A DNA stretch of 64,000 bases from positions 188,067 through 252,066 of the IMG/VR virus record IMGVR_UViG_3300022719_000283; one strand, written 5' to 3'. Position 1 is the first letter of the stretch; each line of letters opens with the position of its first letter. The translations under genes were made by a program, and so were the position numbers. Below, piece after piece: positions 34,850 through 60,095 of the stretch. This DNA is from a virus. Taxonomy: Duplodnaviria > Heunggongvirae > Uroviricota > Caudoviricetes. The notes beneath the pieces were generated by a model, which saw nothing but the letters and a program-made list of their open reading frames with translations, did not search any database and was not told where the DNA came from.

Positions 34850-34904
34850 ACGCCCCTTATACCCGATGCGGATCTCGCGATCCTGGATTTTCACGGAAAG
34901 CGCG

Positions 34905-35426: not shown

Positions 35427-35504
35427 GGGACACCTTACCAGAGCGCGATCTTGGCGTCCTCACCAACGCGCCCCTAACGAGCCTATGCGTCACCCTTAGC
35501 GAAG

Positions 35505-36272: not shown

Positions 36273-36274
36273 CC

Positions 36275-38678: not shown

Positions 38679-38686
38679 GAATCACT

Positions 38687-40667: not shown

Positions 40668-40915
40668 TCGTCTTTCGGGTCAAGTGCAGGACCATCCGGC
40701 TCAGCCATAGGCTCCCCAGGATCAAGGCTATCGTCTAATGCGTTCGCAAGGTGATCGCGTGCGCGTGTAACAAAGCCCGGCGGCTTATCCATACCATTCA
40801 ACCACTGTTGAAGTTCCGCCCAAGCCTGCACGACGTTTTGAAACTGCCGACGTGCCAGGTGATTGTCGGGCAGTTGCCGCAGATATTCTTTCATTGACAT
40901 TTCCCTATCAGCCAT
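40664..40915 (-). CDS. 83-aa ORF between tnpA and tnpB
   Basis: Its start is 22 nt after the tnpA stop and its stop overlaps the tnpB start by 4 nt (ATGA). Helical-looking composition. Confidence 0.4.
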   Translation of the reverse strand: MADREMSMKEYLRQLPDNHLARRQFQNVVQAWAELQQWLNGMDKPPGFVTRARDHLANALDDSLDPGEPMAEPDGPALDPKDE

Positions 40916-40936
40916 CGATGCCTCCTTGAATTCCGG

Positions 40937-43923: not shown

Positions 43924-43973
43924 AGCAACCTTGATTCCAGCGTAGCATTGGGGTCCCTATGAAGCATGGCGCT

Positions 43974-44513
43974 TCACGCGTGTTTCAGGATTGCGGAAAC
44001 GGTGTTTCGAAGCTTCTTTGCAAGCAGGGGTCGGTCCCGCTTTGCGTCCGTCTTCGCCTCGTCCTCCAGGACGTCGCTGAGGGCTCTCAGGAACTCAGAT
44101 CGGACCTCGGGACGCTCCAGACACGACAGCCAGTAAGACGGCTCCTGATCCCTCACACGGGCCTTATGAGGGTCTCCTATCCGGGGTCGACAGAACTGCC
44201 AAAGGCGATCAAATTTCTTGGCTATGTCGGCGTATCCAAGCAGTTCGAAGAGCTCCTGGTGGTATCGATATTCCACACGCCGAAAATCCCGAGCCAGATC
44301 ACGCATCTCCTGCTTTTTCGTGAACTTCGCGTGAAGCGCATAAACCTCCCGTCCCGCCGCTTCTCGAGTTCCACGAATTCGAGAACACTCCGTACCATCG
44401 GGGCCAAAGGCGTGCCACCCGTCTCGCTCCTTGCTCACGGTGCCCACCTCTGCACCCCGCACGAGCACCTTTGCCAACCCAGGCCGGATCGTCTGGAACT
44501 TGAACAGCTTCAA
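43974..44513 (-). CDS. Hypothetical protein (179 aa)
   Basis: ORF. Confidence 0.45.
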   Translation of the reverse strand: MKLFKFQTIRPGLAKVLVRGAEVGTVSKERDGWHAFGPDGTECSRIRGTREAAGREVYALHAKFTKKQEMRDLARDFRRVEYRYHQELFELLGYADIAKKFDRLWQFCRPRIGDPHKARVRDQEPSYWLSCLERPEVRSEFLRALSDVLEDEAKTDAKRDRPLLAKKLRNTVSAILKHA

Positions 44514-44932: not shown

Positions 44933-44967
44933 GGATCATCTTACCCTCTTGATCCTCTCGGCAGTCC

Positions 44968-45468: not shown

Positions 45469-45963
45469 GTGGAAACGGTCCCGACGCTTGAGATGTACTT
45501 CTACGATCGGGTGGAGCCCTCGTCGCTCCACGGGGATGTGAAAGCGTACCTGGTAATGCGGCTCGCCCACTGGGCGAAGAACGAGCCAGCCAACGACACC
45601 GCGCTTGGGATCGCCTACATGGAGGCGATCCACGCGCACCGCTGGCAGCTCCGAGAAATCGGAGACCGGGCGCTGTACTGGGCCGGCGTCGTGCCCCACA
45701 GCATGGGTCCGATGGTCACACGCCGGTATGTGGAAGACGTGGGGAGCTCCGCCTATGCCCGGTTCGCCGAGGCCATCGACTCAGCGCTGTTCTGGACCCT
45801 CTCAGAGGCGTTCAGGGAGGCCACAGACGTGTTGTACGAAGCCTGCCGGGGTCACGACGAACCCATCGAAGAGCTCGTCCAAAGGGCACTCAGGAACGCT
45901 GACGAGCGCGACGAAGAAGAACTCCGCCAGCAGGGGGTCGTGCTACTCAAACATCCCCGATAA
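45469..45963 (+). CDS. Hypothetical protein (164 aa, plus strand)
   Basis: ORF with helical, acidic C-terminus. An unlisted 55-aa ORF at 45272-45436 precedes it in the same orientation. Confidence 0.45.
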   Translation: METVPTLEMYFYDRVEPSSLHGDVKAYLVMRLAHWAKNEPANDTALGIAYMEAIHAHRWQLREIGDRALYWAGVVPHSMGPMVTRRYVEDVGSSAYARFAEAIDSALFWTLSEAFREATDVLYEACRGHDEPIEELVQRALRNADERDEEELRQQGVVLLKHPR

Positions 45964-46044
45964 AGACACCAGACCAAGAGTTTCAAGCCTTTACTCTTGC
46001 GCACGGAGCCCCGTGCTGCTCCATGCACGCGACCCCAAGAGGGC

Positions 46045-46326
46045 TTATGGCCACTCAGAGCAAGCAATGACCTCGGGATTCTTCGTGTCTCGGAACACGT
46101 CCCAAAGTAGGCGCTCGGATCCGGCCTCGTCGTCCATGCGGATCTTGATCTTCCGGGCGCCCCCTTCGTAGACCTGGTCAATTTGGATACCATCAAGAGT
46201 CGCCACGTCCTCGAGAGAGCCTTCGTTTTCCCAGCAGGCACGGGCGACCTCAAATGCCTGGATCAGGTTCTTCGCCACGACCCAATACGTAGCACATACG
46301 TCGACTTCGTAGAGGTTCATCTCCAT
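46045..46326 (-). CDS. Small hypothetical protein
   Basis: Start set at the internal MEMNLYEV. The 120 aa upstream of it in the listed ORF are R/S-rich and look non-coding. Confidence 0.4.
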   Translation of the reverse strand: MEMNLYEVDVCATYWVVAKNLIQAFEVARACWENEGSLEDVATLDGIQIDQVYEGGARKIKIRMDDEAGSERLLWDVFRDTKNPEVIACSEWP

Positions 46327-46531
46327 TGTTGTGTCCTTCGTTACCGGTAAATGCCGAGGCTGGCCTTCGGTGGATCTTCTTTTTGGGTCCCCAACATTCC
46401 CGCGGCTTTGAGGGTGTAGTACGCTGCGGCCGTAGGGATGATGTAGACAGTGCTCTGCTTCTCGATGTGCTCGGCTAGTGACGGCATCCCGAGCCGCCGG
46501 GCGAGCTCGGCCTGTGCTCGGGCCTCGGGAC

Positions 46532-46870
46532 TCACGGACGGCCCTGCTCACGGATAAGCTTGAGGAGGAGCTTGATCTCAGGGAAATGCCCGTACTTTTC
46601 CTCGATCTTCGGCAGTTTTTCGCCGTACAGTTTGTCGTACTCCTCAAGCGCTTGATTGGCCTTCGACGCAATGGAGTCATCCTCATGACCGCAGAGCTTT
46701 CGGAGCTCCGTCATGTTGAAACTGACGGTCCCGAGACCACGAAGCGCTCCCCACAGCTCCCTCTCAGCCCGGCTCTTGTCGCAGTTGTGGACCCCGTTTC
46801 CGGGGATGTCATCGCCGCACCGTGGGCAGTGTCGTGGTAAAAGACATCGTTCGTCTCCTGGCATCTCCAC
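46532..46870 (-). CDS. Cys-rich small protein (112 aa)
   Basis: CPRCGDD...HNCD. Preceded by a variant of the recurrent upstream element; GTG start. Confidence 0.45.
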   Translation of the reverse strand: MEMPGDERCLLPRHCPRCGDDIPGNGVHNCDKSRAERELWGALRGLGTVSFNMTELRKLCGHEDDSIASKANQALEEYDKLYGEKLPKIEEKYGHFPEIKLLLKLIREQGRP

Positions 46871-46931
46871 CCTTCTACCCCCCCTTTCCGGCGCTCTCCC
46901 GTATTTTCACGTTCCTCGCCCGTGCGGCACC

Positions 46932-49055
46932 TCACCGCCCGGCCTTCTTCTTGCCCTTGTTCTTCGCCTCGACGTCGGCGACGAACTTCGCGTACTCCAT
47001 CTTGTGGTGCTCGAGCAGGCCCGCGTAGCGCTTCTCGTCGCTGAACTGCTCGACGCCCGCCATGTCCTTCTCGTTGAAGGCCATCTCGCCCCGCATGTTC
47101 TCCGTGCCGTAGTCGAAGGTGACCACGAGGTGCGAGGACGAGTGACCCTCCCCGCTTCCTCGAAGGACGCGGCCTACAGCCTTGAGCGGGATCATGGACG
47201 GGGGTCGTGCACTCGCGTCGACGTGGAGGTGCCCCATCTTCGACTGCGTGCCGCTCAGGACCCCGATCGCGTACCGCTCCGCATCCTCCTTCTTCGCCCA
47301 GCACCCCTGGGCCCAGCAGAATGATCCGTCTTCGATCTTCGACGCGTCGAAGACGAAGTAGTCGCCCTTCTTGACGGTCGAGGGTGGCTCACGCCGACGT
47401 TCATCGTCCTCGGGGGGATTCGTGACCCCGTAGTCGAACTCGGCCACGTACCTGTCGAGGTCCGTCTCCTGCATCCAGCGGTCGAACTCCTCGTCGAAGA
47501 CGATGTCCGGGTACTTCTTCCGGTAGGCCCGGTAGACCTCGACGAACTTCGCCATATTGTCCCTGGCAAAGGGGACTTCGTAGGCCGGAGGATACACGTC
47601 GGTGTTGAGCCGGGGCTCCTCCCCGTGCCTGATCGCGCTCTGGCAGATGTTGAGTCCGAGCAGCACGAAACTCGGCGCGAGATCGGGGAAGGGGCCGAAC
47701 ATGCTCTCGCCGAGGCCGGCGCCGAGGCAGATGGCGTCGTAGTCCTCCGAGGGGCTCCCCCACGGGCCCTGGAAATCGAAGGAGCCGATGTCGCCGTACT
47801 CGGCCGCGAGCTGCTTGACCTCGTCGGTCACCACGGTGCGCGGGAACCCGTTCTCATGCCAGTCGTCGGCACGCGACGTGAACATGGCCTGCCGAGCCGC
47901 GTGGGCGAACGAGTGGAGACGCTGCTCGTCGTCGAACTCCTTCCACCGCTCGATGGCAGCCTCCATGCTCTGGTCGCCGTCAAGGCTGCTCACGCCCATG
48001 TACAGAGTCGGCCATGAGAGACACTGCTGGAGCAGAACCTCGGTGGCGGTGTAGCTCTTTTCACGCTCTTCCTGGATGTAGTCGCGTACGGGATCCGGTT
48101 CCCGAACCCACTCGAACGTCGCGAACTCGACGATGCCCGCATCTCGGTTGACCCCTTGTTCCTGCCGAAACTTGTAGACCCCCGGCTTCACGTCCACGAC
48201 GTGCACGGTCCAGTGCTCGATGATCTCCTTGACCGTCCTGTCGGGCGTGTGATGGGCCACGCGACGCACGAACTCGTCGTAGTCCGCGATCGAATACCAC
48301 CACAGATCAGTGCAGATAGAGGCGACGGGCTCTTCCCACGGGCACGGGTCAGGGTTCGGGTAATCCTCGTTCTTTTCCCGGTCCCACAGGTCCTCACGGT
48401 AGCTGCCGATGACGAACTTGTCCTCCCCGTTACGGTAGACCTCGGGACTGGTGTTGCCCACGAAGCCGTAGGCCATGCCGACCTTGGCCGCCGCAAGGCT
48501 GCTCAGGTGACAGCCGATCATGGCGTTCACGTTGTAGTCCTCGTCGACGGGGAACCACTGTCGCAGGTCATCGTCCACGACGATCTTCCCGGACGGCACG
48601 TTGAGCTCGTACTCGGTGATGAGCCCGTCGGGGTAGGGGCACGCTTCGTTGAAAGCCACAAAGCCCTTCCCATTGAAGGCCAGGCTGAACACGGCTCCAC
48701 AGAACGTGCATTCGTGCCGCAAACTTAAAGAAGCCAGGGAGATGGGCTCTTCGAGCTCAACCCCAGCCTCAATGGCATCCGCGAACTTTTGGAGCTGCGG
48801 GACCTGCATGAACCCCCATAGGAGGGATTCCCGAACCATGTCTCTGAGCCGTTTTTCGGGGCTGTCGAACCATCCTTCGTCATGCCAGTACTTTCCGCTG
48901 CGGTAGTGCCCTCGCCAGTCGAGAAGATCTCCACCCTTGCAGAAGGGCATGAGCATCTCCTGCACCTTCATCGCAAGCTGGAAGCGCTCGTGCGCCTCTC
49001 CGGAATCGTCGGCCATGAGCTCCTTGAGTCGGGTCAAATCATCGATTTGCGGCAT
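46932..49055 (-). CDS. Large hypothetical protein (707 aa)
   Basis: Long ORF, Trp/Asp/Glu-rich, several Cys pairs, no named motif. Confidence 0.6.
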   Translation of the reverse strand: MPQIDDLTRLKELMADDSGEAHERFQLAMKVQEMLMPFCKGGDLLDWRGHYRSGKYWHDEGWFDSPEKRLRDMVRESLLWGFMQVPQLQKFADAIEAGVELEEPISLASLSLRHECTFCGAVFSLAFNGKGFVAFNEACPYPDGLITEYELNVPSGKIVVDDDLRQWFPVDEDYNVNAMIGCHLSSLAAAKVGMAYGFVGNTSPEVYRNGEDKFVIGSYREDLWDREKNEDYPNPDPCPWEEPVASICTDLWWYSIADYDEFVRRVAHHTPDRTVKEIIEHWTVHVVDVKPGVYKFRQEQGVNRDAGIVEFATFEWVREPDPVRDYIQEEREKSYTATEVLLQQCLSWPTLYMGVSSLDGDQSMEAAIERWKEFDDEQRLHSFAHAARQAMFTSRADDWHENGFPRTVVTDEVKQLAAEYGDIGSFDFQGPWGSPSEDYDAICLGAGLGESMFGPFPDLAPSFVLLGLNICQSAIRHGEEPRLNTDVYPPAYEVPFARDNMAKFVEVYRAYRKKYPDIVFDEEFDRWMQETDLDRYVAEFDYGVTNPPEDDERRREPPSTVKKGDYFVFDASKIEDGSFCWAQGCWAKKEDAERYAIGVLSGTQSKMGHLHVDASARPPSMIPLKAVGRVLRGSGEGHSSSHLVVTFDYGTENMRGEMAFNEKDMAGVEQFSDEKRYAGLLEHHKMEYAKFVADVEAKNKGKKKAGR

Positions 49056-49136
49056 ACCACCCTTTGTACACTCTTCCGGACGAAGTCGGCGTTCTGAAGG
49101 TATGAGGCACCCCAGAACACAAAATCCGGTTGATCC

Positions 49137-49454
49137 CTAGTCCTTACGGGCGAGGGCGAAAAGCCGATCCCGGATATCCGAAATTTCACCATATTCAGCG
49201 TTGGTGAGATCCTCCCCCATGAGGTCGAGCTCCGAAGCCATGCGGAGCAGTATGTCGCGCTCCGTCCCCTCCATGAACTCGAAACGGCCCTCGTCCTCAA
49301 ATTCGTCTTTGGGACGCACCCAAACCGTGCCGTTCAGAAGGTTTCTGTAGATGACAACATCGCCGCATGTCTCGCTGTCCTTCCCGAACTCGAGAATCTC
49401 GTAGCGACCGCCCTTCTTGTGTCGGTACCTTTGTCCCTTGATTGCTTGTGCCAT
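49137..49454 (-). CDS. DUF1653-family protein
   Basis: YRHKKGGRYEILEFGKDSETCGDVVIYRNLLNGTVWVRPKDEF matches the DUF1653 consensus YRHYKGG.YEVL.....SET.E.VVYR.L.......WVRP...F. Confidence 0.55.
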   Translation of the reverse strand: MAQAIKGQRYRHKKGGRYEILEFGKDSETCGDVVIYRNLLNGTVWVRPKDEFEDEGRFEFMEGTERDILLRMASELDLMGEDLTNAEYGEISDIRDRLFALARKD

Positions 49455-49996
49455 AGTCTATCGTTCTACTCTTGCCACAGCTCTTCAGGACGCAAGGTGA
49501 CAACATAGCCCACAACCACTCCCCTATTGAATGCGCTCAACGGGCCTGATCGAGCTCCACGGTGGGCTCAAGTGATTTGAAGCTCTTGGGGGGAGGGGAA
49601 CAGCTCACGTCAGCACAATGGCCGCAGTGCTTGCGATGCCTCCTCGCTATGGCCGACGAGTCGGCGCGCGACCGAGGTCAGACTACGACGTCCCGGCCGA
49701 TGACGATGATCTGGCTGAAACACGTTGAAAGGCCGAGGTTCCCGCGACCCCATGTGGCCCAGCCGCCTCCCCAGAGCTCATGAGGCTCATTGTGGTAGTG
49801 CTCTGGGGTCTTGACAGACCCCATCGGCACGGGCTCGTGCATCGTAGGAAACCGCTGAGGACTCGTGATCGTTTCTCCGTGGCCAGACATCTCAGGGGTT
49901 TTACCCCCCGTGGGGATGCCCATGTCTTCCCCTTTCTCGGGGGTCCCGTCGGCCTGCGCTCCTGGCCGGCGAAGGAGGGCATCTCAGGGGCTCTAC

Positions 49997-50413
49997 CTAT
50001 TTTTCCTCGGGCGCCCTGTCGGCAGCGCGCACCTCCCGGAGGGCCGGATCGTTCAGAGTCCTGCACTCGACCTCCGCCAAAACCGCGTTGCCTCTCGCCT
50101 CGAGCTCGGCATCCTCCGTCAACCGTCCTAGCGCCAGTGCCGTCTGTCCGTACTCCTTCAACAGCTCAAATCGCATGAGGTTGCCCAGGAATGCCGGTGT
50201 TGCATCGTGGAATCGACCGAAAGTCTTCCAGTGACGTCGCAGATGCTTTAGCAGCTCACGCTCCTCCTTGGTGCCCAGCCACCTTTGGAACTTGTCTATG
50301 GCCTCGGAACGGTTCAACAGGAGTAGGGCCGCGAGGGGCTCCTCAAACGCTATCCCGATCACAGCAAGCAACTGAAAAACCGGGTGCCGAGACGCCTTCA
50401 TCATGAAACCCAT
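49997..50413 (-). CDS. Hypothetical protein (138 aa)
   Basis: ORF; GGGTAGAGGTAGAG lies just upstream of its start. Confidence 0.4.
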   Translation of the reverse strand: MGFMMKASRHPVFQLLAVIGIAFEEPLAALLLLNRSEAIDKFQRWLGTKEERELLKHLRRHWKTFGRFHDATPAFLGNLMRFELLKEYGQTALALGRLTEDAELEARGNAVLAEVECRTLNDPALREVRAADRAPEEK

Positions 50414-50592
50414 GACCCACTCTACCTCTACCCAAGAGCCTCAGCGTGGCTTGGGAACGTCCATGACTTGCACGCAGACGGGGACGCCATCAATCTCGGA
50501 AGGGAACTCGTTCTCGATGCTCGCGTCGTAAAGACGCACCTCCACACTGTCCCCGGGCCCGATTCCAATCGAGAATTCACCCTCGTGCGCCT

Positions 50593-51009
50593 TCATCTGC
50601 TTGAGCACTTCCTTCCCTCGGGGGTCACCACGGCCTCCAGAGAGGCGTCAGGGCCCTCGTGAGGGATGGGGAGACAGTAGACGCACCCACCCGTCTTCTT
50701 GGCCTGATCGGCCTCATAGCGGTCCACAGCGACTCTCAGGGTGTCCTGGCGCCGGTGCCGGATAAAAGGGAGCCGTCTCGGCATTCCCGGCCTGCCCGGC
50801 TCCTCGCTCAGGACACGGTTGTAAAGATCCCTCCACGGGCCCGGATGGCCCACCGCCCACTCGAGCTCGTCGCCCTCCTCGGGGCTCAGGAGGCCGCTCA
50901 GCCAGTCCTCGATGCGTTTTCGGTCGTTCATCCCGCCCTCACCAGGAAGACGGAGGCCGGGGGCAAGACCTGACAGATGGGACTCGATTTTCTCGTCGTT
51001 GTGGCTCAT
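50593..51009 (-). CDS. Hypothetical protein
   Basis: Start set at MSHNDEK; contains CVYC. Confidence 0.35.
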   Translation of the reverse strand: MSHNDEKIESHLSGLAPGLRLPGEGGMNDRKRIEDWLSGLLSPEEGDELEWAVGHPGPWRDLYNRVLSEEPGRPGMPRRLPFIRHRRQDTLRVAVDRYEADQAKKTGGCVYCLPIPHEGPDASLEAVVTPEGRKCSSR

Positions 51010-51419
51010 CGGGGGTTCTACATGGAACACTCCCCCGAAACCCGAAGCTGATACCCCTTCGTGAAAAAGAAGGCGCGAGGGCCTCTGGGGTCAGCGCTTC
51101 GGCAGCTCGTAGACCCCGAGGAGCGCGGCCACCTCGGCGCAGTTGCGAGCTCGAGGGATGGTCGGGCTATTGATCCGGCAGGTCTCGCACTCGCAGACGC
51201 CGATCTTGAACCCGTAGTCCTTCATGTTCTGGCACCGCACCCGCGGCCAAGCTCCGAACACGCCGTGGGGCGGGGAACGTCGCGCCCGCGTCCTGTGCAC
51301 GCCGTCCCAACGTGAAACTCTCACGGAGACTGCGCTCGAGCTCGGTTTCCGGGGGCCCTTGGCTTCCCACCTCGACTTTCACCCGTCGTGCGCGCTCCAC
51401 ATTCATGTCGCTCATGCGG

Positions 51420-51722
51420 TCACTCTACTCGTTCTTCAGCGACAGGCCGGGCGCAAGCCCGCGCCTGCTCAGGGGTGAGAACTCGAACTCGTTGGGTGCC
51501 CTGGGTCAGCTCCAGTGTGTCCCCGTCGCGGACCCTCTCTCGGAGATAGAGTTGCCGCAGGAGACACTCTCGCACGAGTTGATCCTCCGGCATCTCGGGA
51601 TACACAGCCCGAAGACGATCCCATTGGTCCTGGTAGATCGTGCAGGAGACCGTAACCTCCTTGGTTTTGCCGAGGTCGATGTCCGCAGAGCTTACGTGGT
51701 CGGGGCCGGTGTGAAAGGGCAT
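51420..51722 (-). CDS. Possible ribbon-helix-helix-type small DNA-binding protein
   Basis: Start set at MPFHTG. TKEVTVSCTIYQDQWDRLRAVYPEM resembles an RHH beta-strand plus helix. Preceded by a variant of the recurrent upstream element. Weak. Confidence 0.3.
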   Translation of the reverse strand: MPFHTGPDHVSSADIDLGKTKEVTVSCTIYQDQWDRLRAVYPEMPEDQLVRECLLRQLYLRERVRDGDTLELTQGTQRVRVLTPEQARACARPVAEERVE

Positions 51723-51827
51723 CTCGCTCCTTCTACTCCTTCCTCGGGCGCTCGGGTAGAGTGACCTCGAGAGCACCGCAGCAAAGTGGGCGTAGCGCTG
51801 GCCCAAGAGTCGTGTGGAACCGGTAGA

Positions 51828-51852
51828 AGGGGTTCGATTCCCCCGGTGCGAG
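51828..51852 (+). other. tRNA-like 3' fragment: T-arm and acceptor 3' strand
   Basis: aGGGG-TTCGATT-CCCCC is a canonical T-stem and loop, followed by GGTGCGA and a G. No matching 5' acceptor strand, D-arm or anticodon arm could be folded upstream. A perfect 6-bp hairpin gggtat...ataccc follows at about 51852-51870. Coordinates are within 1 nt. Confidence 0.4.
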
Positions 51853-51916
51853 GGTATTTAGCTGATACCCAGGTACTCACTCCCTCAAGAACGACCTTGA
51901 GGGAGTGGGTTCTTTT

Positions 51917-52108
51917 TCACGAATCGAAACGCCCCTGCACCGCTCCACGAACCCAACGGAGGTATTCGCCGTGCTCCAGCTTCTTGAAGTGCTCGCAGTG
52001 TGGTTTCGTATGAACGACCACGATCGCCTCACCCTCCGGAGAACGTGGCATGACCACCGCGGTCCCCCCACATGGGCACTCGCCCGCCATGATTTCGTTG
52101 GCCTCCAC
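51917..52108 (-). CDS. Cys/His-rich small protein (63 aa)
   Basis: CPCGG...HTKPHCEHF. Immediately downstream of copy B of the conserved 47-nt upstream element. Confidence 0.4.
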   Translation of the reverse strand: MEANEIMAGECPCGGTAVVMPRSPEGEAIVVVHTKPHCEHFKKLEHGEYLRWVRGAVQGRFDS

Positions 52109-52301
52109 GACTGATTCTACCCCTTCGGAGGGCGCCCCCTCTTTTTACGTTCCTGGCCAGTCAGTACCGACGAATCCAGTGGCGAGGCAACAGGTCCTTG
52201 TATTGAAGCCACCGTCCGGGGTTGCTCCCTTCCTCGAGTTCGACGATGACAAGCCCCCATGAAGTGCGATTACGTCGCAGCAACCTTGTCATGGGTCAGT
52301 C

Positions 52302-52718
52302 TTACCGCAAATCCACTGAAACCGCAGAAACACGAACAAGACGTTCGTAGTTGCTCCGCAACAACGAAGGGTAGTCAGGTGAGGCCATCACTTCCGTGTA
52401 GCTCCTACCCAACGCCTCGTAGGCATAAGCATCTACGTCCCAACCCCGAGACTCCAATGCCTCAGCCGTTCGGTTGAAAAGAGCGTGCGCATTCCCTAAC
52501 CACGTGCCCTCTGGACACGCAAGAAGGAATCGAACAGGATCTTCTCCCTTTCCCACAACATCCACACAAGGACCCGCATCCTCCAACACCTCCTCGGCGT
52601 CGCCCGGACAGACGGGGCCTCCTCCACACTTCAGGCAAAACCTTGCCCAACCATCAGCGCGGTGCGAACAAGTGTCCTTGTGGTACAGACCGTCCCGGCG
52701 AAAAACGTAGTTTGCCAC
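52302..52718 (-). CDS. Cys-rich hypothetical protein (138 aa)
   Basis: CLKCGGGPVCPGD...CVD. Confidence 0.4.
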   Translation of the reverse strand: MANYVFRRDGLYHKDTCSHRADGWARFCLKCGGGPVCPGDAEEVLEDAGPCVDVVGKGEDPVRFLLACPEGTWLGNAHALFNRTAEALESRGWDVDAYAYEALGRSYTEVMASPDYPSLLRSNYERLVRVSAVSVDLR

Positions 52719-53049
52719 GGGAGCATCTTACCAAAATCGGAGTATCGGCGAGCGCCACCCTTGCGTCACACGTCTCTTTGGCCTCTGCCTCGGAGAAACA
52801 CACGCCCCCGACGAGCCACTCGTCGGACCCGTGCCAGCGCTCAGGCTCGCTGCCTTGGAAGGACACCGACCACGTCCAGTACTCCTCTTGCGGCGACCGC
52901 TCGTTCACGATCTTCTCGAGCTCGTGGCGCGGCTCACGAGGCGCCGAGTGGGCGACGTGCCACCTCCACTCGGGGTCAGGCCAGTACTCCCACTTCTCGA
53001 CGGTAGACACTCGAGGGTTGTCGACGACGGCGTGCTCCCACTCGGTCAT
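52654..53049 (-). CDS. Trp-rich hypothetical protein (131 aa)
   Basis: Preceded by GGGGTAGAAGGAGGGCCATG. Its C-terminal end overlaps the next gene. Confidence 0.4.
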   Translation of the reverse strand: MTEWEHAVVDNPRVSTVEKWEYWPDPEWRWHVAHSAPREPRHELEKIVNERSPQEEYWTWSVSFQGSEPERWHGSDEWLVGGVCFSEAEAKETCDARVALADTPILVRCSRGKLRFSPGRSVPQGHLFAPR

Positions 53050-53072
53050 GGCCCTCCTTCTACCCCAACCAA

Positions 53073-53108
53073 AGAGAAGACCCCGAGGCCGAAACCGCGG
53101 GGGTCTCT
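53073..53108 (-). terminator. Candidate intrinsic terminator after the 53118-53555 gene
   Basis: Imperfect 8-9-bp stem AGACCCCG / CGGGG(G)TCT with one bulge. On the minus strand it is followed by UUUGGUUGGGG. Confidence 0.3.
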
Positions 53109-53117
53109 CCCGTCAGG

Positions 53118-53555
53118 TCAGGCCGCACGGTAACTCCACCACGTCCGGTATTTGCAACCTGGACACTCCCACTGGTGCGCCACCTCGGGCCCCCTCGCCT
53201 GCACCTCCCCCGTGGAACGCACGGGACCCCCCGAGCAGCGTAGGCCGTCCTGACGGTACGGGCATTCCATCTCGTCGGGCTCCTCGTAGACGACCCGCAC
53301 GGTCTCGCCGACCAACCACCCCCTTGAACTTCGGTCCGGGTGCCAAGCGACCCACAGCGAGTCGTCCCCGGTCTTGCGCGTCACGGAGAAGTGGAACGGC
53401 ACCCCGTCACGACCGGCCCAGACGTAGGGCTTCTCGACGAGCTCACGGCCATCAACGAATACACGCAATGTGCCCCGTCGAGCAGGTCTCCGAGTCCAAA
53501 ATGGACCAGCACAGTGCGGCTCCCTCGGGGCCGGGAACGACTCAATCCTCAACAC
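53118..53555 (-). CDS. Cys-containing hypothetical protein (145 aa)
   Basis: ECPYRQ...CPGCK. Preceded by an element variant (GAAGGTGTAGAAGGAGGG). Confidence 0.4.
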   Translation of the reverse strand: MLRIESFPAPREPHCAGPFWTRRPARRGTLRVFVDGRELVEKPYVWAGRDGVPFHFSVTRKTGDDSLWVAWHPDRSSRGWLVGETVRVVYEEPDEMECPYRQDGLRCSGGPVRSTGEVQARGPEVAHQWECPGCKYRTWWSYRAA

Positions 53556-53635
53556 ACAGCCCTCCTTCTACACCTTCCTCGGGCGCCTTCAGTCCGCGCG
53601 TTCCTGAAACGCGGGACGGTTGGCCCCGTGCCGGC

Positions 53636-54076
53636 TCAGCACTCCGGACACCGAACCGACGAAATCATCCCGATGTTACCGGTGCCCCCACAGCGGCGAC
53701 ACGTCAGCGGCTTGCCCGCCCCGAACCTCCAAGACGAGCCGTCCCGGGCCACGAACACGATCTCCTCCGCGTCCAAATCGGCCTTTTTGAAAGCCATGAC
53801 CAGACGACCCCACAGAGTGGCTTGGAGACCTGCTCGGATGAGTTTCGCGTTACACTCGATGTCCAAAATGTCCCGGCTGAACTGCCTCAAGTCAGCGTAG
53901 GCAGCGGTACCCAACCCGAATACGTCCACATCCACGTTGTGGACGTGCTCGAGGTGATCCAGCACCTCCCCCAGGGGACCTGGGGAGAGAGGCCGGGGAA
54001 TGAAATCCATCCCCGGCACGACGAGAACACGATGCGACCCCTCCGTAATGATGTCCCTGGCTCGAGCGAGCTCCAC
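53636..54076 (-). CDS. Partial capsid-protein paralog fused to a C-terminal zinc ribbon
   Basis: YADLRQFSRDILDIECNAKLIRAGLQATLWG has 22 of 29 residues identical to YADIRKFGRDILDIESQATLLKTGLQATLWG in 60096-60974. The encoding DNA is also similar. Ends CRRCGGTGN...CPEC. Confidence 0.6.
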   Translation of the reverse strand: MELARARDIITEGSHRVLVVPGMDFIPRPLSPGPLGEVLDHLEHVHNVDVDVFGLGTAAYADLRQFSRDILDIECNAKLIRAGLQATLWGRLVMAFKKADLDAEEIVFVARDGSSWRFGAGKPLTCRRCGGTGNIGMISSVRCPEC

Positions 54077-54085
54077 GTTGCAACT

Positions 54086-54766
54086 CTACCCTTTCTGTTT
54101 CGGAGGGGCGTCCCACCCGAGGTGACGCTCACGCCACGCAGCACAGTCCTGAGAGTGCTCGCCCGCGAAGGCCGGAGGGCTCACCGACCCGCAGCCGTCG
54201 CACCGGAACGAGAAAACGAACGCACCCCGCTCGTCCTCTCCCGTCTTCACGACCGTGAAGTCGCCGCGACACAGACCTGGAACAACCCGGAACCTCGTGT
54301 CCAGGGTCGTTCGCACTGTCCTCGTCGCGGGACGGTCGGAGAAGTCTGGCAAGTCGATGTGCCAGCGCAGCAGGTAGGAGCCGACCGCGACCTCGTCCTT
54401 CGGAACCAGCAGAGAGGCGTAATACACGTCGTCCTCGTCGAGGACCGGGACGCGCTCCTCTGGACCGATAAGCCCGAGAACCCCGTGAGGCACTTCGCTC
54501 ACGTCCACGTAGTAGAGGCTGTACCGGACGCGCCTCGCGAGCGGAAAGTGGATCGCCAGGTCCCGACGCCCCAGCTCCTGCCCGAGGACGAAAGTGGAAT
54601 GGGCCCCCAGCGTCTCCATGAGCCGGTCGGGGGAGCGCTCGTCGCCAGGAGGGTCAAGAGGACACGGGACGTACAGCGGCCTCCCGCGGGCGATCCCAGG
54701 CACGAGGGCCACGGCTGCTCCGGCCCCGACGGTCTTCACGAAGGTGCGGCGGTCCATGACGCCCAT
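54086..54766 (-). CDS. Tat-signal (twin-arginine) secreted protein
   Basis: Start set at the internal MGVMDRRTFVKTVGAGAAVALVPGIARG, which gives an RRxFVK twin-arginine motif, a hydrophobic core and an AxA cleavage site. Copy A of the conserved upstream element lies immediately 5'. Confidence 0.55.
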   Translation of the reverse strand: MGVMDRRTFVKTVGAGAAVALVPGIARGRPLYVPCPLDPPGDERSPDRLMETLGAHSTFVLGQELGRRDLAIHFPLARRVRYSLYYVDVSEVPHGVLGLIGPEERVPVLDEDDVYYASLLVPKDEVAVGSYLLRWHIDLPDFSDRPATRTVRTTLDTRFRVVPGLCRGDFTVVKTGEDERGAFVFSFRCDGCGSVSPPAFAGEHSQDCAAWRERHLGWDAPPKQKG

Positions 54767-54938
54767 TCTACCCCTTCGGAGGGCGTCCCATCTTTTTACG
54801 TTCCTGGCCAGCGATCCTGCACCACCGGAACACCAGGACGGCTGGTCCCGTGCGCCTTTTATTTTAACACCACGGAACACAGGAGACTCGGTTCTATACC
54901 CCATCTCTCCTAATTCGTCGCGGGACATGCCGCAGCCG

Positions 54939-55598
54939 TCATCGACGACCGTGCGGCAGTAAACTCCCAATCCCAGTTTCCGCCTCCCACGCCTCGGAGA
55001 ACTCCCGGTCCCGGAACGCCTCAGCCAGCCCCGTGATCTGCTTGAGTCTAAGAACCTCATCCGGGTCCATCCCGAGCTCCTCGCTGATCCTCTCGTTGGT
55101 CCAGTGGTGCTTCGTCAGGGACGTGACGAGCTTCGCGCTGAGCTCGACTTGGTGCGTGCCTCGCGCCATGTTGTGGCGCACCGTGGAGGTCATGCGATCC
55201 TCGATCGACTTCTCCAGCTCCACCAGAGGCACATACCCGGCCAGGCTCTCCTGCACCTCCTCGCACGTCTGGATGACCGTGGTCCGGTGAAAACCGTCCA
55301 CGACGACATGCTTCTCGAGACCCTCGTCGTAGGCCGCCACCACGGGCATCGTCATTCCATCCTTCCGGATCGAGAACTCCAAGAGACGCATCTCCGGAGG
55401 AGCGACCACGTTGGGGTTGTAGTCGTTCCCCTTCACCTGGTCGGCCTTCACGAGTTTCACGCCGGTGACCGGGTGCGGGAGACCCAAGAAGTCCTTCATC
55501 GTCTGAGAGACCTCGTTGAAGATCTCCACACGCTCGTCCACGTTCAGGTCTCCGCACTCCTTGAGAAGGGCGCGAAGTTTCTCAGCTACGTTGCTCAT
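54939..55598 (-). CDS. ParB/Srx-like nuclease-domain protein (IbrB-like)
   Basis: DYNPNVVAPPE...VVVDGFHR resembles the ParB N-terminal domain (DGHHR/GxxR region). It is paired and slightly overlapping with a PAPS-reductase-like gene, as in IbrA/IbrB. Confidence 0.45.
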   Translation of the reverse strand: MSNVAEKLRALLKECGDLNVDERVEIFNEVSQTMKDFLGLPHPVTGVKLVKADQVKGNDYNPNVVAPPEMRLLEFSIRKDGMTMPVVAAYDEGLEKHVVVDGFHRTTVIQTCEEVQESLAGYVPLVELEKSIEDRMTSTVRHNMARGTHQVELSAKLVTSLTKHHWTNERISEELGMDPDEVLRLKQITGLAEAFRDREFSEAWEAETGIGSLLPHGRR

Positions 55599-56886
55599 GT
55601 TCCTCCGAGAAGCTCGCTATCAGGGCGAGCTGCCTGCTCATCTCACGCTTCGTTTGACTGAAACTCAAACCCTTTGCCCAGTAATCGTTCTTCAGAAGGA
55701 CCTTCACGATCCTGCGCCACGAGGGAACCTTCCTCTGAGACTCCATCTTGGGGTCCGCCTCATCGGGAATCGGCGGGTAGGAGACCCCCAGCTTCTTCTC
55801 GCCATTCGCGTACCACCACGCGAGGAACTTGTCGATCTTCTCGCGGTAGTGGGCGGCGAGATAGGGAGGCATCGTGTCCAGAAGGAAGTTGGCGTAGCTC
55901 TCGTAGGTGTGGCCGGGAGGAAGAGACACCTTGAAGTTGCCGAACACAGTACCTCTGGTCTTGCTGTACCGGCACCCGAAATTCGCCCCCTCGACACGCG
56001 TCACCACGCGAATCCACGTCTCCGGCTCGAGAAGTCGGAAAAGGTAGAGACCCTTGCGCTGGTCGTCTCCGTACGGCTGACACAGCCGCTGCTGCGAGAG
56101 GGGGACACCGGCGAGGTGCATGAGATCGTAGATCTCGTTGTAGTCCCACCCGAACTTTCCGTTGGCCGTCCAGACGTCCTCCGTCCTCCAGTCGTAGATG
56201 GGGAAGGCGGTGTAAGTGTCCCTCGTCTGCCGGGTGGTCCACGGGCGCCCTCCGAGCGTCTCCTTGCGATCGTTGATGAGCGTCCGGAACCGGTTGAGGC
56301 TCTCGTCGCTCCGGATGCCCACCAAGCAGCATGTCCTGCGCCCGTCGGCGATCCACTCCCCGAACTCCGGGACGAAGTCCTCGAACTCCATGCCCCTGTA
56401 GAAGAAAGGATAGTGCGTCTCGCTCGAGACGACCCCGGGAGCCTCGGGCATCGGCCGCACCCACGCGTCCTTCTTGTCCGGATTCCAGCACAGCCAGTGC
56501 GGTTGAACCTGGCTCACAGCATTGCGGAGGTGCAAGGGGAGACACACCCAGTGGGGGCGTACCTCGGGCCGGGCAAGTGTCCTCTCCACGTACCGGATGG
56601 TGTGGGCGTACTGGGCCTCGAGGTCCACAAGAAGCACGTCGAGGGGGAGCCGGCCGCGCTCCCGGGCAACCTCGACGGCGAGGTTGAGGAGAACCCCGGA
56701 GTCCTTTCCCCCGGAGAACGAGAGGTACACGTGCTCGAACTCATCGAACACCTCGTGCAGGCGCTCCACGGCCGCGTCGTAAACACTTTTCCCTAGCGGT
56801 CTCTTCGGCATCCTCCCACCTTGTACTCCGACGAAGAAAACACGAAGATTATGCCCCCCGCGTCCTCTTGAGCGCCGCACGCTCAC
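55582..56886 (-). CDS. PAPS-reductase / PP-loop ATPase-family protein (IbrA- or DndC-like)
   Basis: YLSFSGGKDSGVLLNL is the PP-loop SGGxDS. Followed by a long C-terminal extension typical of phage PAPS-reductase-like proteins. Confidence 0.7.
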   Translation of the reverse strand: MSVRRSRGRGGHNLRVFFVGVQGGRMPKRPLGKSVYDAAVERLHEVFDEFEHVYLSFSGGKDSGVLLNLAVEVARERGRLPLDVLLVDLEAQYAHTIRYVERTLARPEVRPHWVCLPLHLRNAVSQVQPHWLCWNPDKKDAWVRPMPEAPGVVSSETHYPFFYRGMEFEDFVPEFGEWIADGRRTCCLVGIRSDESLNRFRTLINDRKETLGGRPWTTRQTRDTYTAFPIYDWRTEDVWTANGKFGWDYNEIYDLMHLAGVPLSQQRLCQPYGDDQRKGLYLFRLLEPETWIRVVTRVEGANFGCRYSKTRGTVFGNFKVSLPPGHTYESYANFLLDTMPPYLAAHYREKIDKFLAWWYANGEKKLGVSYPPIPDEADPKMESQRKVPSWRRIVKVLLKNDYWAKGLSFSQTKREMSRQLALIASFSEEHEQRS

Positions 56887-58054
56887 TTTTGGAGATTGCA
56901 GTAATCCCGTACTTCTTTCGTCGAGACCGGATCGGCATTTTACTTACGCCGTAGAGGTCTCCGATCTCCGTGTCGGTGAGAAGCTCCTTTTGGTAGAGAC
57001 GGGCGAGCTCCTCCCCCGTCAAGGTCGAGAGCCGGAGACCTCCCTCCTGCCGCCGTTCTTTTCGTTCTTGATTAGAGACCGACGGGATGCCCCACTTCCT
57101 CCGAACACGCGCCACCGCAGCTCCATCGAAAGGAGGGTCTACACCCGCCTCCCGAGACAATAAAAGCGCAATTTCCCCGTCTGTCTTCAGTTCCCCTTCG
57201 TATAGGTCCCTGAGTAGGTCCGGGGTCAGCAAAGAAATGAGTTCTCCTCTGCGCGCACTGCCTCTTGCGGACCCGGGACGGCGAACCCCCAGCCGAGGCT
57301 GAGGCAGTTTAGCCCCCATGCAAACGGGCATGTGCTCTCGGACGAGAGCGAAAAAGCGATCATCTTGCCCAGAAAAGGTGAGGCTTTTAGCGCCATTGCC
57401 CGGGTGAACCGTTGCGCTCAGATCCAAAGCCTCAAGCGCCTCCAAAGCCCGCTCCAAACTAAGGTTATCGAGCCCGAAGGTGATCCTCGGGTAGTACCGG
57501 TTCATGATCCCCCCATCATCCATGTACCACACCGCAAGTACAAAGGGGTCTATGATCTCAGGCAGCGTAGCCGGAAACACACGATGCCCGGAGGTGTAAA
57601 AAAGATCGTAAAAAGGACGAAGCCTTGTTGTCGAAACCGTGGCAAAGTTCCAAGCGTGGAACTCCCGACCGTCCTCCCCTCGCTTCGTAGAAGGATAGCG
57701 CGACGAAACGTAAGGACCCAAGAGGTCCGCTTTCCAGTCCGTATACTCTCGCTGTTTTAGGGAGTGTCCCTCCGAAAAACGTGCGGTGGTCGGACTGGGG
57801 GCTGACATGCTCCCATCCCCCAAAAGGGACCCGATGATGAGGCTTCTCTGTCTTGACGAAAGCTCGTCAAGTTGCTTTTCAATCCGCCCCGTCTTACCCA
57901 AATTCTCCAGCCCGTGTCGCGCCTTGAACCGGTTCACAGCCACTTGGTAAGTCCCGTATCGCTCGGCGATCTGGGACTCTGTCAGGAGCTCATCGTAGTA
58001 AAGTCGTTGAAAGTCTTCGACCGTAAGGTCTTCAATAGGCACGGTGCCTATCAT
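56849..58054 (-). CDS. LAGLIDADG homing endonuclease (two motifs, monomeric type) with flanking HTH modules
   Basis: LIIGSLLGDGS and LAVWYMDDGG are the two LAGLIDADG motifs. HTH-like LYYDELLTESQIAERYG (N-terminus) and LYQKELLTDTEIGDLYG (C-terminus). Confidence 0.8.
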   Translation of the reverse strand: MIGTVPIEDLTVEDFQRLYYDELLTESQIAERYGTYQVAVNRFKARHGLENLGKTGRIEKQLDELSSRQRSLIIGSLLGDGSMSAPSPTTARFSEGHSLKQREYTDWKADLLGPYVSSRYPSTKRGEDGREFHAWNFATVSTTRLRPFYDLFYTSGHRVFPATLPEIIDPFVLAVWYMDDGGIMNRYYPRITFGLDNLSLERALEALEALDLSATVHPGNGAKSLTFSGQDDRFFALVREHMPVCMGAKLPQPRLGVRRPGSARGSARRGELISLLTPDLLRDLYEGELKTDGEIALLLSREAGVDPPFDGAAVARVRRKWGIPSVSNQERKERRQEGGLRLSTLTGEELARLYQKELLTDTEIGDLYGVSKMPIRSRRKKYGITAISKSERAALKRTRGA

Positions 58055-58096
58055 ACCCTATCTGAAAACATACGCAAACAGTCGGGTAGTTTCTTC

Positions 58097-59068: not shown

Positions 59069-59081
59069 CGAAAAACGCTCC

Positions 59082-59963: not shown

Positions 59964-60095
59964 CTCATGACTTTACCAGATCAAAAACTTGACTTCCTCC
60001 CCTGCCTGAAGGCCGGGGACTTTCTCGCTCAACCCGGGTAAAAAGAGACCCCCACTCCGAAGAGCAGGGGTCTCTTACCGTCTAGGCTAGCAGGA

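Follow-up and report, generated by a model that had tools for sequence, protein, structure and literature searches.

A recurrent 47-nt element before small genes of a huge phage is a candidate portable promoter for leaderless mRNAs

Introduction

A 64,000-nt stretch of DNA from a virus of the Caudoviricetes (IMG/VR record IMGVR_UViG_3300022719_000283, positions 188,067 to 252,066; hereafter, the window) carries at 46.8-54.8 kb an array of small minus-strand genes with similar short sequences directly in front of their starts. The locus raises the question of which step of gene expression the repeated sequence serves. A preliminary description placed a shared promoter or operator in its 5' part and an extended Shine-Dalgarno (SD) sequence in its 3' part. 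We found that the repeat is a real and statistically solid regulatory element. Its sequence and geometry suggest that it is probably a portable promoter cassette, with a -10 box 5-7 nt before the start codon of a leaderless mRNA and an upstream box for a factor.

Two full copies and their shorter relatives

Each of the two 21-nt blocks singled out in the preliminary description (CTGGCCAGGAACGTAAAAAGA and CGCCCTCCGAAGGGGTAGAAT) is found exactly twice in the window, both times on the minus strand, against 0 expected occurrences of either in the shuffled window. The blocks are at 54791-54811 and 54765-54785 (copy A) and at 52140-52160 and 52114-52134 (copy B), and the copies agree at 45 of 47 nt. 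The near-identity claimed for them is thus confirmed, as is their location; the limits first drawn (54761-54815 and 52113-52168) are a few bases too wide (Table 1). The similarity ends at 54811 and 52160 on the upstream side, where it begins with CTGGCCAG, and runs to the last base (T) of the hexamer TAGAAT. The sequences flanking the two copies and the genes downstream are unrelated. Copy B starts immediately after the stop codon of an open reading frame (ORF) of 43 amino acids. Copy A is followed 7 nt past its hexamer by an ATG (54757) whose product begins with the twin-arginine signal MDRRTFVK; an alternative ATG (54766) overlaps the hexamer. In the public assembly of the sample (SRR23862439), the Logan contigs L180 and L023 end at 52161 and 51798, a break at copy B. 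A 47-nt repeat exceeds the assembler k-mer, so the break is a practical sign of a true multi-copy sequence.

About 13 shorter relatives precede other small genes at 46.8-54.8 kb. Two of them contain GCGCCCGAGGAAGG[AT]GTAGAAGGAG (53562-53587 and 51727-51752; 96% identity across 25 nt), and a repeat search grouped 51727-51752, 53562-53586, 52111-52135 and 54762-54786 into a 25-nt family. The same search aligned 46876-46922 and 53565-53611 with copy B over its full length (each 62% identical). The word GGCGCCCGAGGAA recurs at 50003-50015 and 53575-53587, with a one-mismatch variant (AGCGCCCGAGGAA) at 51740-51752, and GGAACGTGAAAA is at 46904-46915. The GGGTAGA-type variants listed earlier before the starts at 54076, 53555, 53049, 51722, 46864 and 50413 are all there, and the motif precedes further starts at 51415, 51009, 49982, 49890, 49454, 49055 and 52718. 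The start at 49890 was set by homology to contig L144 (MSGHGET...), where the corresponding copy reads GGGG-TAGAGG-gatcgag-ATG; the ORF from ATG 49982, after copy F, is of doubtful coding value; and the ORF from GTG 52718 (138 amino acids, Cys-rich) overlaps the end of gene 52654-53049. The genes had been described as a Cys-rich set. Most of the products do have 3-6 cysteines, several with CxxC pairs, but the likeness is loose and the proteins are not paralogues. None of the array products matches a Pfam family above cutoff.

The elements sit in intergenic gaps of 28-200 nt; one neighbouring gene that lacks an element shares an ATGA overlap with its predecessor. At two elements (53049 and 51009 sites) a terminator-like hairpin comes first.

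Homologous copies in other metagenomes and the upstream box

Homologues of the full element were sought by scanning metagenomes for GGAACGTRAAAA-N15-30-GGGTAGAA. Two of the 41 hits were true homologues, one in L144 (a 5.4-kb contig with 58% GC) and one in L147 (1.4 kb). Reading the L144 contig revealed another copy, one base longer. The five full copies (two in the window, two in L144 and one in L147) share an invariant GAACGTAAAAAGA, GGG, CG.CC, CG and GGGGTA.AA; conservation starts about 4 nt before the GAACGTAAAAAGA box and ends at position 5 of the hexamer. Their flanks are unrelated, as are the five proteins that they precede. In blastn comparisons with the window copies, the identity of the element is 86-93% for L144 and 97.6% for L147. 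Homologous coding DNA reaches about 70%, and the proteins shared with related contigs are 57-64% identical. The element is the only DNA of L147 that matches the window and the best-conserved DNA of L144. An identity above that of coding DNA, in front of unrelated genes, argues for purifying selection on the element itself and for its portability. The claim of a shared promoter-type signal is upheld, and the 5' part with GAACGTAAAAAGA is the most strictly conserved across these five copies from three metagenomes, as a site recognized by a protein would be. The junction sequence at the 51415 start was also found again in L144 and L147.

The 13-nt GAACGTAAAAAGA box covers about -45 to -33 relative to the start. 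This is more distant than a sigma-70 -35 hexamer would be, and we take the box for a probable protein-recognition site of its own, for a regulator or sigma contact. The distance from the start of GAAC to the hexamer is 33 nt in copies A, B and D, the first L144 copy and L147, 34 nt in the second L144 copy and 37 nt in copy C. A lone box at 1901-1916, in the 3' end of a DUF7487 gene (1879-4308) and about 125 nt before the next ATG (1778), has no -10-like hexamer at the usual distance. The predicted folds of the spacer (CCCT-loop-AGGG) differ across 13 copies, with no consistent hairpin. Rfam had no match on either strand of 45500-56000 (E up to 1), and a nhmmer profile of the five full copies recovered no further full copy in the loci searched. 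Neither the phage collection nor Rfam had a counterpart of GAACGTAAAAAGA, and neither a megablast search with the region nor a blastn search with the 47-mer gave a relevant match among 50,697 phage records.

Other scans gave matches of different kinds. The 11 hits of GGAACGTRAAAA-N15-30-GGTAGAA in IMG/VR were chance matches in unrelated sequence, and scans for GAACGTAAAAAGANGGGG and GGTARARCYCCTGAGATG returned only chance or coding matches, with no related proteins. Contig L146 (Ga0233427_10000006; 267 kb, 42% GC) has GTAGAAGGAGTTTTAAGATGAGCAAAGTCGG twice in minus orientation (4805 and 6495), once preceded by GGAACGTGAAAA...GGGGCTCCGCAGGG, with 16 nt in common with the L144 element. L146 shares CTCCGCAGGGGTAGAA with L144 and has no related proteins. 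Its sequence could be a distant homologue of the element with true SD spacing or a coincidence.

A second recurrent motif, (C)CTG(G)TGTTCCG, stands upstream of the element as two direct repeats 48 nt apart (54820-54884) and once in L144 (2569-2600), with similar words past the ParB gene of contig L024 (10620-10690). Each can pair with neighbouring bases as a short hairpin, a candidate terminator or binding site. The TCCTGGTGTTCCGGTGGTG word in this flank of copy A is also common to L144, upstream of its element. The words TTCCGCAAGCCG(C/T)(G)GTAG, encoding ...FRKP(R)*, mark gene ends in L147 and L144 (1725-1745, 2037-2052 and 2580-2595); three consecutive, otherwise unrelated L144 genes end with them, as another recurrent junction sequence.

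A TA motif at a fixed distance from gene starts

The shared 3' core of the copies is a G-rich run followed by TA[G/A/T]A.. (e.g., GGGGTAGAAT, GTAGAAG or GTAGAGT), 5-9 nt and mostly 5-7 nt before the start codon. On the minus strand of the window, 18 of 40 GTAGA words have, 5-9 nt downstream, an ATG or GTG from which an ORF runs for 50 codons or more (3.2 expected, p = 3.6e-10). The same test with GGTANNNT gave 16 of 36 (p = 4e-9), and no association of GTAGA with starts was detected on the plus strand. Within 46.8-54.8 kb, nearly every minus-strand GTAGA (14/15) lies a few bases before an ORF-opening start, and the word also precedes starts outside the array (38690, 32808, 28109, 27017 and 15218). 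A motif-blind test tallied the 5-mers found within 22 nt before 88 starts that had been picked by coding potential and codon statistics alone. GGGTA (16 versus 1.3 expected, p = 3e-13), GTAGA (14 versus 1.05) and GGTAG ranked first, above the SD words AAGGA and AGGAG. Chance does not account for the association. Nine of the starts (54766, 54076, 53555, 53049, 46864, 51009, 50413, 51415 and 49454) recur in gene calls made independently on Logan contigs from this sample.

Alignment of 24 sites on the hexamer gave the consensus gGG-TAgAat, with no -35-like consensus upstream, and a scan for sigma-70 -35/-10 pairs found none in 45500-56000. All 26 sites compared, from four phage contigs, have T and A as the first two bases (T1 and A2) of the hexamer. 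The gap before the start codon at the 15 array sites is 5 nt (three sites), 6 nt (three), 7 nt (seven), 8 nt (one) or 9 nt (one), and it is 5-7 nt at all 11 window-wide sites outside the array. The final T (T6) is present at all 11 of these and at 6 of the 15 array sites.

Relatives of the phage have similar start regions. In L024, the closest contig, GTAGAAG or GTAGAAC stands 5-6 nt before the ATG of its own, different genes. The Tunturiibacter phage Tunturi_5 (L168; PP885688.1), whose starts were annotated independently, has a repeated GGGTATTAG-N5-ATG and ...TCATCTTTGG...GTAGGTTGA-N4-5-ATG. A start-proximal TA architecture is, as far as these sequences go, a habit of the clade. The Tunturi_5 sites are at 4230-4253, 18160-18199, 41240-41300, 43884-43940 and 44465-44489, with AAaTTCATCTTTGG-N13-GTAGGTTGA-N4-5-ATG as a second form. 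This phage is cultured and encodes a sigma factor (gp3) and an antiterminator (gp25). Around the head gene of the uncultured phage LR745208.1 we found few GGTANNNT-start pairs, no enrichment and no box. The regions upstream of distant homologues of the 707-amino-acid gene of the array (L012-L018) were uninformative, their starts being ambiguous.

A probable -10 element rather than a ribosome-binding site

The assignment of the 3' part to an extended SD sequence was not supported. The invariant letters are the T and A of a TA..A. hexamer, not purines that pair with CCUCC, and a clearly homologous L144 copy reads TATAAC (GGGGTATAAC-N7-ATG). AAGGAG(G) is embedded in copies D and E and in the 53049 site, and there, as in the GTAGAAGGAG copies generally, it ends 0-5 nt from the start, too near for the 5-10 nt at which complementarity to CCUCC defines an SD sequence. 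The SD sites of structural genes in the same window (AAGGAG, AGGAGG) end 7-10 nt from the start. Copies with TAGAAT, TATAAC, TAGAGT or TAGAAC have no SD-like run at a usable spacing. The two signals also divide the genes between them. Among the 88 predicted genes, 15 have only the TA motif, 19 only an SD sequence and 2 both. A GG-TANNNT that no purine run follows also lies 5-7 nt before at least 11 genes of the window outside the array, among them the genes for peptide deformylase and two homing endonucleases. The repeat shared by copies A and B stops exactly at the hexamer.

The motif also precedes a candidate non-coding RNA. On the plus strand, a promoter-like GGGTAGAGT (51754-51762) has no ORF start after it and leads instead to an RNA with a tRNA-like fold (acceptor GCACCG/CGGTGC, T-arm GGGGTTCGATTCCCC; fold z = -3.3). 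ARAGORN calls the fold only at an 80% threshold, as His(gtg) with a 9-nt intron or Leu-like, and makes no call at default settings. A ribosome-binding role has no place in front of a non-coding RNA.

The geometry matches the published signature of leaderless genes, a TANNNT motif whose first T is some 12 bp ahead of the start codon (Zheng et al., 2011, PMC3160421), so the 3' part is better read as a -10 element than as an SD sequence. Leaderless genes of this type make up 39% in Deinococcus-Thermus, 19% in Actinobacteria, 16% in delta-proteobacteria and 13% in Acidobacteria (PMC3160421). In experiments with D. radiodurans, the motif 6-7 bp upstream of the ORF was the -10 region of the promoter and sufficient for expression, a ribosome-binding site could not substitute for it, and position 6 of the hexamer was irreplaceable for the primary sigma (Zhong et al., 2025, PMC12340547).

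Proposed function of the element

The G-run and TA[G/A/T]A[A/G]N hexamer at the 3' end of the element (e.g., GGGGTAGAAT) would act as a -10-type element that operates without a sigma-70 -35. RNA polymerase would open the DNA at the hexamer. A -10 element 5-7 nt (range, 5-9) before the start predicts a transcript that begins at the ATG or GTG or within about 3 nt of it. Such a leaderless mRNA would be translated without an SD sequence by direct binding of the ribosome, probably as a 70S-type initiation, to the 5' start codon. The GAACGTAAAAAGA box and the GC-rich spacer (GGG.CG.CC..CG) may offer a second recognition surface, the box most likely binding a phage or host transcription factor, or serving as a sigma or alpha-subunit contact, to set strength or timing. 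Every small gene having its own or a decayed copy, the array would be a string of short independent transcription units, and the repeated cassette may serve as a recombination point for gene shuffling. We lean towards the host primary sigma as the reader of hexamers that end in T.

Several observations weigh against this explanation. The hexamer ends in G, C or A rather than T in 9 of the 15 array sites, and these hexamers may be weak, activator-dependent or read by a phage-directed polymerase. Much of the TAGA conservation in the array could reflect the common descent of duplicated cassettes rather than selection. The leaderless reading itself is inferred from geometry only. Three to four copies do contain AAGGAG(G), for which a dual role (-10 and SD) is possible, and the possibly homologous GTAGAAGGAG of L146 lies 7 nt from its ATG, a proper SD spacing. 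Several starts are GTG, a codon that is less favoured for leaderless initiation in some bacteria. The distance between box and hexamer varies (37 nt in copy C, 41 nt in L146) and the box stands alone at 1901-1916; box and -10 element may not, then, form one rigid promoter. Finally, the host is only suggested, by the similarity of the head protein to that of an Acidobacteria phage.

A bolder version of the proposal is that GAACGTAAAAAGA-N20-GGGGTAGAA defines a dedicated promoter class of huge soil and sediment phages. A phage activator or sigma-like factor would read it to drive leaderless, SD-independent mRNAs, and the cassette would move accessory genes between phages much as PeSL cassettes do, outside the T4-like phages. 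We regard this as speculative, with perhaps a modest chance of being right.

Alternative explanations

The arrangement in the preliminary description, in which the promoter occupies the 5' part and the 3' part is the ribosome-binding site, appears improbable to us. GGAAC...(A-tract) would be its -35-like and CGCCC/CCGA its -10-like element for an alternative sigma factor of the extracytoplasmic function (ECF), sigma-28 or phage type; transcription would start near GGGGTAGAA, leaving a leader of 10-20 nt whose GAAGGGG or GTAGAAGGAG would pair with the 3' end of 16S rRNA. The consensuses used for comparison were GGAAC-N16-17-CGT for ECF, TAAA-N15-GCCGATAA for sigma-28 and TGGCAC-N5-TTGC for sigma-54. 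GGAAC is like an ECF -35 and TAAA-N14/15-CCGA faintly like sigma-28. Also in favour of this arrangement are the rank of GAACGTAAAAAGA as the most conserved block, AAGGAG(G) in copies D, E and the 53049 site, GTAGAAGGAG-N7-ATG in L146 and the sigma factor of the distant relative Tunturi_5. Its weakness is the partner of the box: CGCCC/CCGA keeps no fixed distance, is absent after the box at 1901-1916 and differs in both L144 copies and copy C. The box is missing from most members of the family and from all 11 window-wide sites, which do have the TA hexamer at 5-7 nt. The proposed pairing with CCUCC leaves the invariance of the T and A unexplained, the AAGGAG runs end closer to the start than the true SD sequences, the TAGAAT, TATAAC, TAGAGT and TAGAAC copies lack such a run at a usable spacing, and the motif is found before a non-coding RNA. 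In the window, L024, L126 and LR745208.1 we found no homologue of the Tunturi_5 sigma. By eye, the sigma-54, ECF and sigma-28 readings of the 5' part were set aside since the second block was not conserved or not fixed in distance. An archaeal TATA box/B recognition element (TATA/BRE) reading was also rejected, the conserved TA being at -12 and not -26.

A closer competitor keeps the leaderless -10 anatomy and assigns the GGGGTAGAR class to a phage-encoded or phage-modified holoenzyme, with the box as the site of a phage activator and the whole as a temporal class. T4 provides the comparison, with middle promoters made of a MotA box and a -10 and late promoters of TATAAATA only. We think this unlikely, though worth keeping in mind. 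The window-wide sites all end in T and vary in the middle, which points to two classes; diverged phages have the 13-nt box unchanged; Tunturi_5 combines the repeated non-canonical GGGTATTAG with a sigma gene; and the array keeps GTAGA[AG] and not the final T that the primary sigma needs (PMC12340547). Searches of Pfam and PHROGs, a check that the preliminary description had proposed, found no sigma factor or known RNA polymerase-binding protein in the 64-kb window, which is only part of a genome of perhaps 300-500 kb. Neither the close relatives named above nor the phage collection has a detectable homologue of the Tunturi_5 sigma, and the TAGA conservation may be by descent. It is very unlikely that the repeats are mainly recombination or junction sequences that mark the insertion of accessory genes and have no transcriptional role of their own. 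The element does adjoin unrelated genes in the window, L144 and L147, the array region is missing from L024, several homing endonuclease genes are nearby, and other recurrent junctions (GTAGAGTGAC(C/G)GCATG and, at gene ends, TTCCGCAAGCCG(T/C)(G)GTAG) are found in L144 and L147. A pure scar would not hold a distance of 5-7 nt to the start or a strict strand bias, and the core also precedes conserved genes across the window and in other phages. PeSL cassettes combine promoter and recombination roles (PMC2839356), which makes recombination a second role more than an alternative. Chance similarity, or a leftover of local tandem gene duplication, we consider negligible. The window has only two near-identical copies and a high-GC genome is rich in G-rich words, but shuffled sequence contained none, the core has p values between 1e-9 and 1e-13, the proteins encoded downstream have no relation to one another and the element is conserved in other metagenomes.

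Genomic setting

Genes of the window encode a major head protein, a ParB-like protein along with a PAPS-reductase/DUF3440 protein, RtcB, Tpt1, RNase HII, peptide deformylase, an IS607-like pair and three LAGLIDADG endonucleases. The major head protein shares 91% identity with its counterpart in the uncultured 485-kb phage LR745208.1, 49% with that of the Acidobacteria phage Tunturi_5 and 39% with that of Bacillus phage G. The best hits of the ParB-like protein are in metagenome-assembled genomes of Bacteroidota (62% identity) and are uninformative for the host. In L024, whose head and ParB-like proteins are 96% and 80% identical to those of the window, gene order is conserved from the head gene through the ParB-like gene and then lost completely; RNase HII, DUF488 and RtcB come after about 4-5 kb, versus about 25 kb in the window. 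The synteny break and the extra DNA place the array in a lineage-specific variable region.

Other genes of the window were noted for their own sake. The 707-amino-acid protein (46932-49055, minus) has no Pfam family, and proteins with 31-36% identity to it are encoded on contigs of 62-529 kb, most of them above 250 kb (huge phages). A two-component system (35505-37444, plus), on the strand opposite to most genes, comprises a receiver protein of 255 amino acids (response regulator, 35505-36272) whose C-terminal half has no assigned domain and a PAS-HisKA-HATPase histidine kinase, and is a possible source of a box-binding factor. A cluster of accessory genes for RNA and translation (23877-35426, minus) includes RtcB (23877-25427), the Tpt1/KptA 2'-phosphotransferase (26044-26658), DUF488 (28540-29061), RNase HII (29242-29919), SPFH/Band 7 (31499-32479), NADAR (34292-34894) and peptide deformylase (34905-35426). 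The phage with the tRNA-like RNA thus also encodes RtcB and Tpt1, which are tRNA splicing and repair enzymes. Three tandem LAGLIDADG_2 homing-endonuclease-like genes with helix-turn-helix (HTH) domains lie between the head and PAPS-reductase genes (56849-59963, minus), two of them also in L024; a GIY-YIG endonuclease gene is at 15990-17147 (minus); and a gene for 955 amino acids with Hint/intein and LAGLIDADG_3 hits stands just past the window end (L180, 1-1347). The IS607-like pair, in the variable region (39225-41683, minus), encodes a serine recombinase with a MerR-type HTH (40937-41683) and a TnpB-like protein (39225-40667), the latter with no close copy in 185,579 species genomes.

Table 1. 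Element copies, related start-proximal sites and associated features, in window coordinates (gap, distance from hexamer to start codon).
Feature	Position	Strand	Sequence and context
Copy A, full element	54765-54811	minus	CTGGCCAG-GAACGTAAAAAGA-TGGGACGCCCTCCGAAGGGG-TAGAAT; box 54791-54803; -10-like hexamer 54765-54770
Copy B, full element	52114-52160	minus	Box 52140-52152; hexamer TAGAAT 52114-52119; gap 5 nt to GTG 52108
Copy C, diverged full element	46872-46922	minus	GAGGAACGTGAAAATACGGGAGAGCGCCGGAAAGGGGGGG-TAGAAG, gap 7 nt to ATG 46864
Copy D	53565-53611	minus	AGGAACGCGCGG...GGCGCCCGAGGAAGGTG-TAGAAG-GAGGGCTGT-GTG 53555; box without A-tract, distance still 33 nt
Copy E	51730-51753	minus	GAGCGCCCGAGGAAGGAG-TAGAAG, gap 7 nt to ATG 51722; no upstream box
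Copy F	49990-50015	minus	GGCGCCCGAGGAAAAATAGG-TAGAGC-ccctgag-ATG 49982; overlaps 3' end of gene 49997-50413
Copy G	54083-54114	minus	GGGACGCCCCTCCGAAACAGAAAGGG-TAGAGT, gap 6 nt to GTG 54076; TAG of hexamer is stop codon of upstream gene
Hairpin and site	53057-53096	minus	Terminator-like hairpin with T-rich tail 53079-53096; GGGG-TAGAAG (hexamer 53057-53062), gap 7 nt to ATG 53049
Hairpin and site	51015-51085	minus	Terminator-like hairpin 51070-51085; TAGAAC 51015-51020, gap 5 nt to ATG 51009
Array site	51422-51427	minus	TAGAGT, gap 6 nt to ATG 51415; GTAGAGTGA also holds stop codon of upstream gene
Array site	50419-50424	minus	GGGTAGAGG-TAGAGT, gap 5 nt to ATG 50413
Array site	49898-49906	minus	GGG-TAAAAC-ccctgag-ATG 49890
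Array site	49463-49468	minus	TAGAAC, gap 8 nt to ATG 49454 (DUF1653 gene)
Array site	49063-49068	minus	TG-TACAAA, gap 7 nt to ATG 49055 (707-amino-acid protein)
Array site	52725-52730	minus	GG-TAAGAT, gap 6 nt to GTG 52718
Lone upstream box	1901-1916	minus	AGAACGTGAAAATACG, 15/16 identical to copy C (46900-46915)
Flank upstream of copy A	54820-54902	minus	GGGGTATAGAAC 54891-54902; direct repeats TCCTGTGTTCCGTGGTG 54868-54884 and TCCTGGTGTTCCGGTGGTG 54820-54838
Promoter-like motif	51754-51762	plus	GGGTAGAGT = GGG-TAGAGT; back to back with copy E and divergent from it; tRNA-like RNA begins about 9 nt downstream
Candidate non-coding RNA	51772-51918	plus	tRNA-like fold 51772-51851, short hairpin, 15-bp intrinsic terminator 51875-51910 and T-run
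Window-wide site	4316-4321	minus	GGG-TACACT, gap 7 nt to GTG 4308
Window-wide site	25418-25423	plus	CGG-TAAGGT, gap 6 nt to GTG 25430
Window-wide site	27894-27899	minus	GGG-TATGGT, gap 5 nt to ATG 27888
Window-wide site	28103-28108	minus	CGG-TAGAGT, gap 6 nt to GTG 28096
Window-wide site	32802-32807	minus	GGGG-TAGAAT, gap 7 nt to ATG 32794
Window-wide site	33592-33597	minus	GGG-TAACAT, gap 5 nt to GTG 33586
Window-wide site	35432-35437	minus	TGG-TAAGGT, gap 5 nt to ATG 35426 (peptide deformylase)
Window-wide site	38684-38689	minus	GGG-TAGAGT, gap 5 nt to ATG 38678
Window-wide site	44938-44943	minus	GGG-TAAGAT, gap 5 nt to ATG 44932
Window-wide site	58050-58055	minus	GGG-TATGAT, gap 7 nt to in-frame GTG 58042 (LAGLIDADG endonuclease gene)
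Window-wide site	59970-59975	minus	TGG-TAAAGT, gap 6 nt to GTG 59963 (LAGLIDADG endonuclease gene)

Significance

The strongest signal before genes in this clade of huge phages would be a -10 box and not an SD sequence, which matters for annotation. Gene callers tuned to SD sequences misplace starts, e.g., at 54766 instead of 54757, or at 49923 or 49842 instead of 49890. The array indicates that a large phage, probably of a soil bacterium, may express accessory ORFans as many short leaderless units. A cassette 86-98% identical between phages whose proteins are about 57-64% identical, and found before unrelated genes, points to promoter-mediated gene shuffling also outside the T4-like phages. 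The 13-nt box is a defined candidate operator with which to find the regulator, and for high-GC hosts that are hard to manipulate, the 47-nt element offers a short candidate promoter. The cultured Tunturi_5 would be a tractable model for the leaderless-promoter idea.

Comparison with known systems

The element resembles an SD sequence in its place just upstream of starts and in the AAGGAG(G) of three to four copies. It differs from one in its conserved T and A, in the 0-5 nt rather than 7-10 nt between AAGGAG and the start, and in the many copies without complementarity to CCUCC. A T4 middle promoter has a sigma-70 -10 and, instead of a -35, a MotA box centred at -30 at a fixed distance. The element likewise joins a host-type -10 to an upstream box that is specific to the phage and no -35 hexamer. 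Here, by contrast, the box lies at about -45 to -33 at a distance that varies in diverged copies, and no MotA- or AsiA-like genes were seen. Sevostyanova et al. (J Mol Biol 366:420) reportedly mapped by experiment, in 2007, the 5' ends of middle and late transcripts of the Thermus phage phiYS40 and found them leaderless. phiYS40 is likewise a large phage with promoters that lack a -35 and mRNAs that start at the initiation codon; it belongs to another phage lineage and has a low-GC genome. It is not known to have an equivalent of the GAACGTAAAAAGA box.

The PeSL cassettes of T4-type phages are also short, repeated composite motifs in front of small ORFans in hyperplastic regions (Arbiol et al., 2010, PMC2839356; Comeau et al., 2014, PMC4122927), and the array has about 15 such sites in 8 kb. 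Further likenesses are the A-rich stretch upstream, the G/C-tract segment before the -10, terminator-like hairpins in places and the joining of one cassette to unrelated genes in related phages. PeSLs have consensus sigma-70 -35 and -10 boxes followed by an SD sequence and the start (PMC2839356, PMC4122927). The element, by contrast, has no -35 consensus, a -10 that abuts the start, no usable SD sequence and no consistent stem-loop, and recombination at it is inferred. The phage that carries it is not T4-like, its head protein being related to those of phage G and Tunturi_5. Strictly speaking, the element falls outside the PeSL family.

The TA-led leaderless genes of cellular genomes (Zheng et al., 2011, PMC3160421; Zhong et al., 2025, PMC12340547) share with the element a TA hexamer whose first T is 11-13 nt before the start, the lack of a -35 consensus and of a usable SD sequence, an ATG or GTG directly after, and a class of genes separate from the SD-led genes of the same genome. 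Unlike them, the sites described here are in a huge phage, form a homologous cassette family with a G-run before the hexamer, lack the final T in 9 of 15 array copies and have predicted 5' ends. Some of the phage copies add a 13-nt upstream box, which the cellular TA motif does not have. The element is thus a known kind of signal in a new phage setting.

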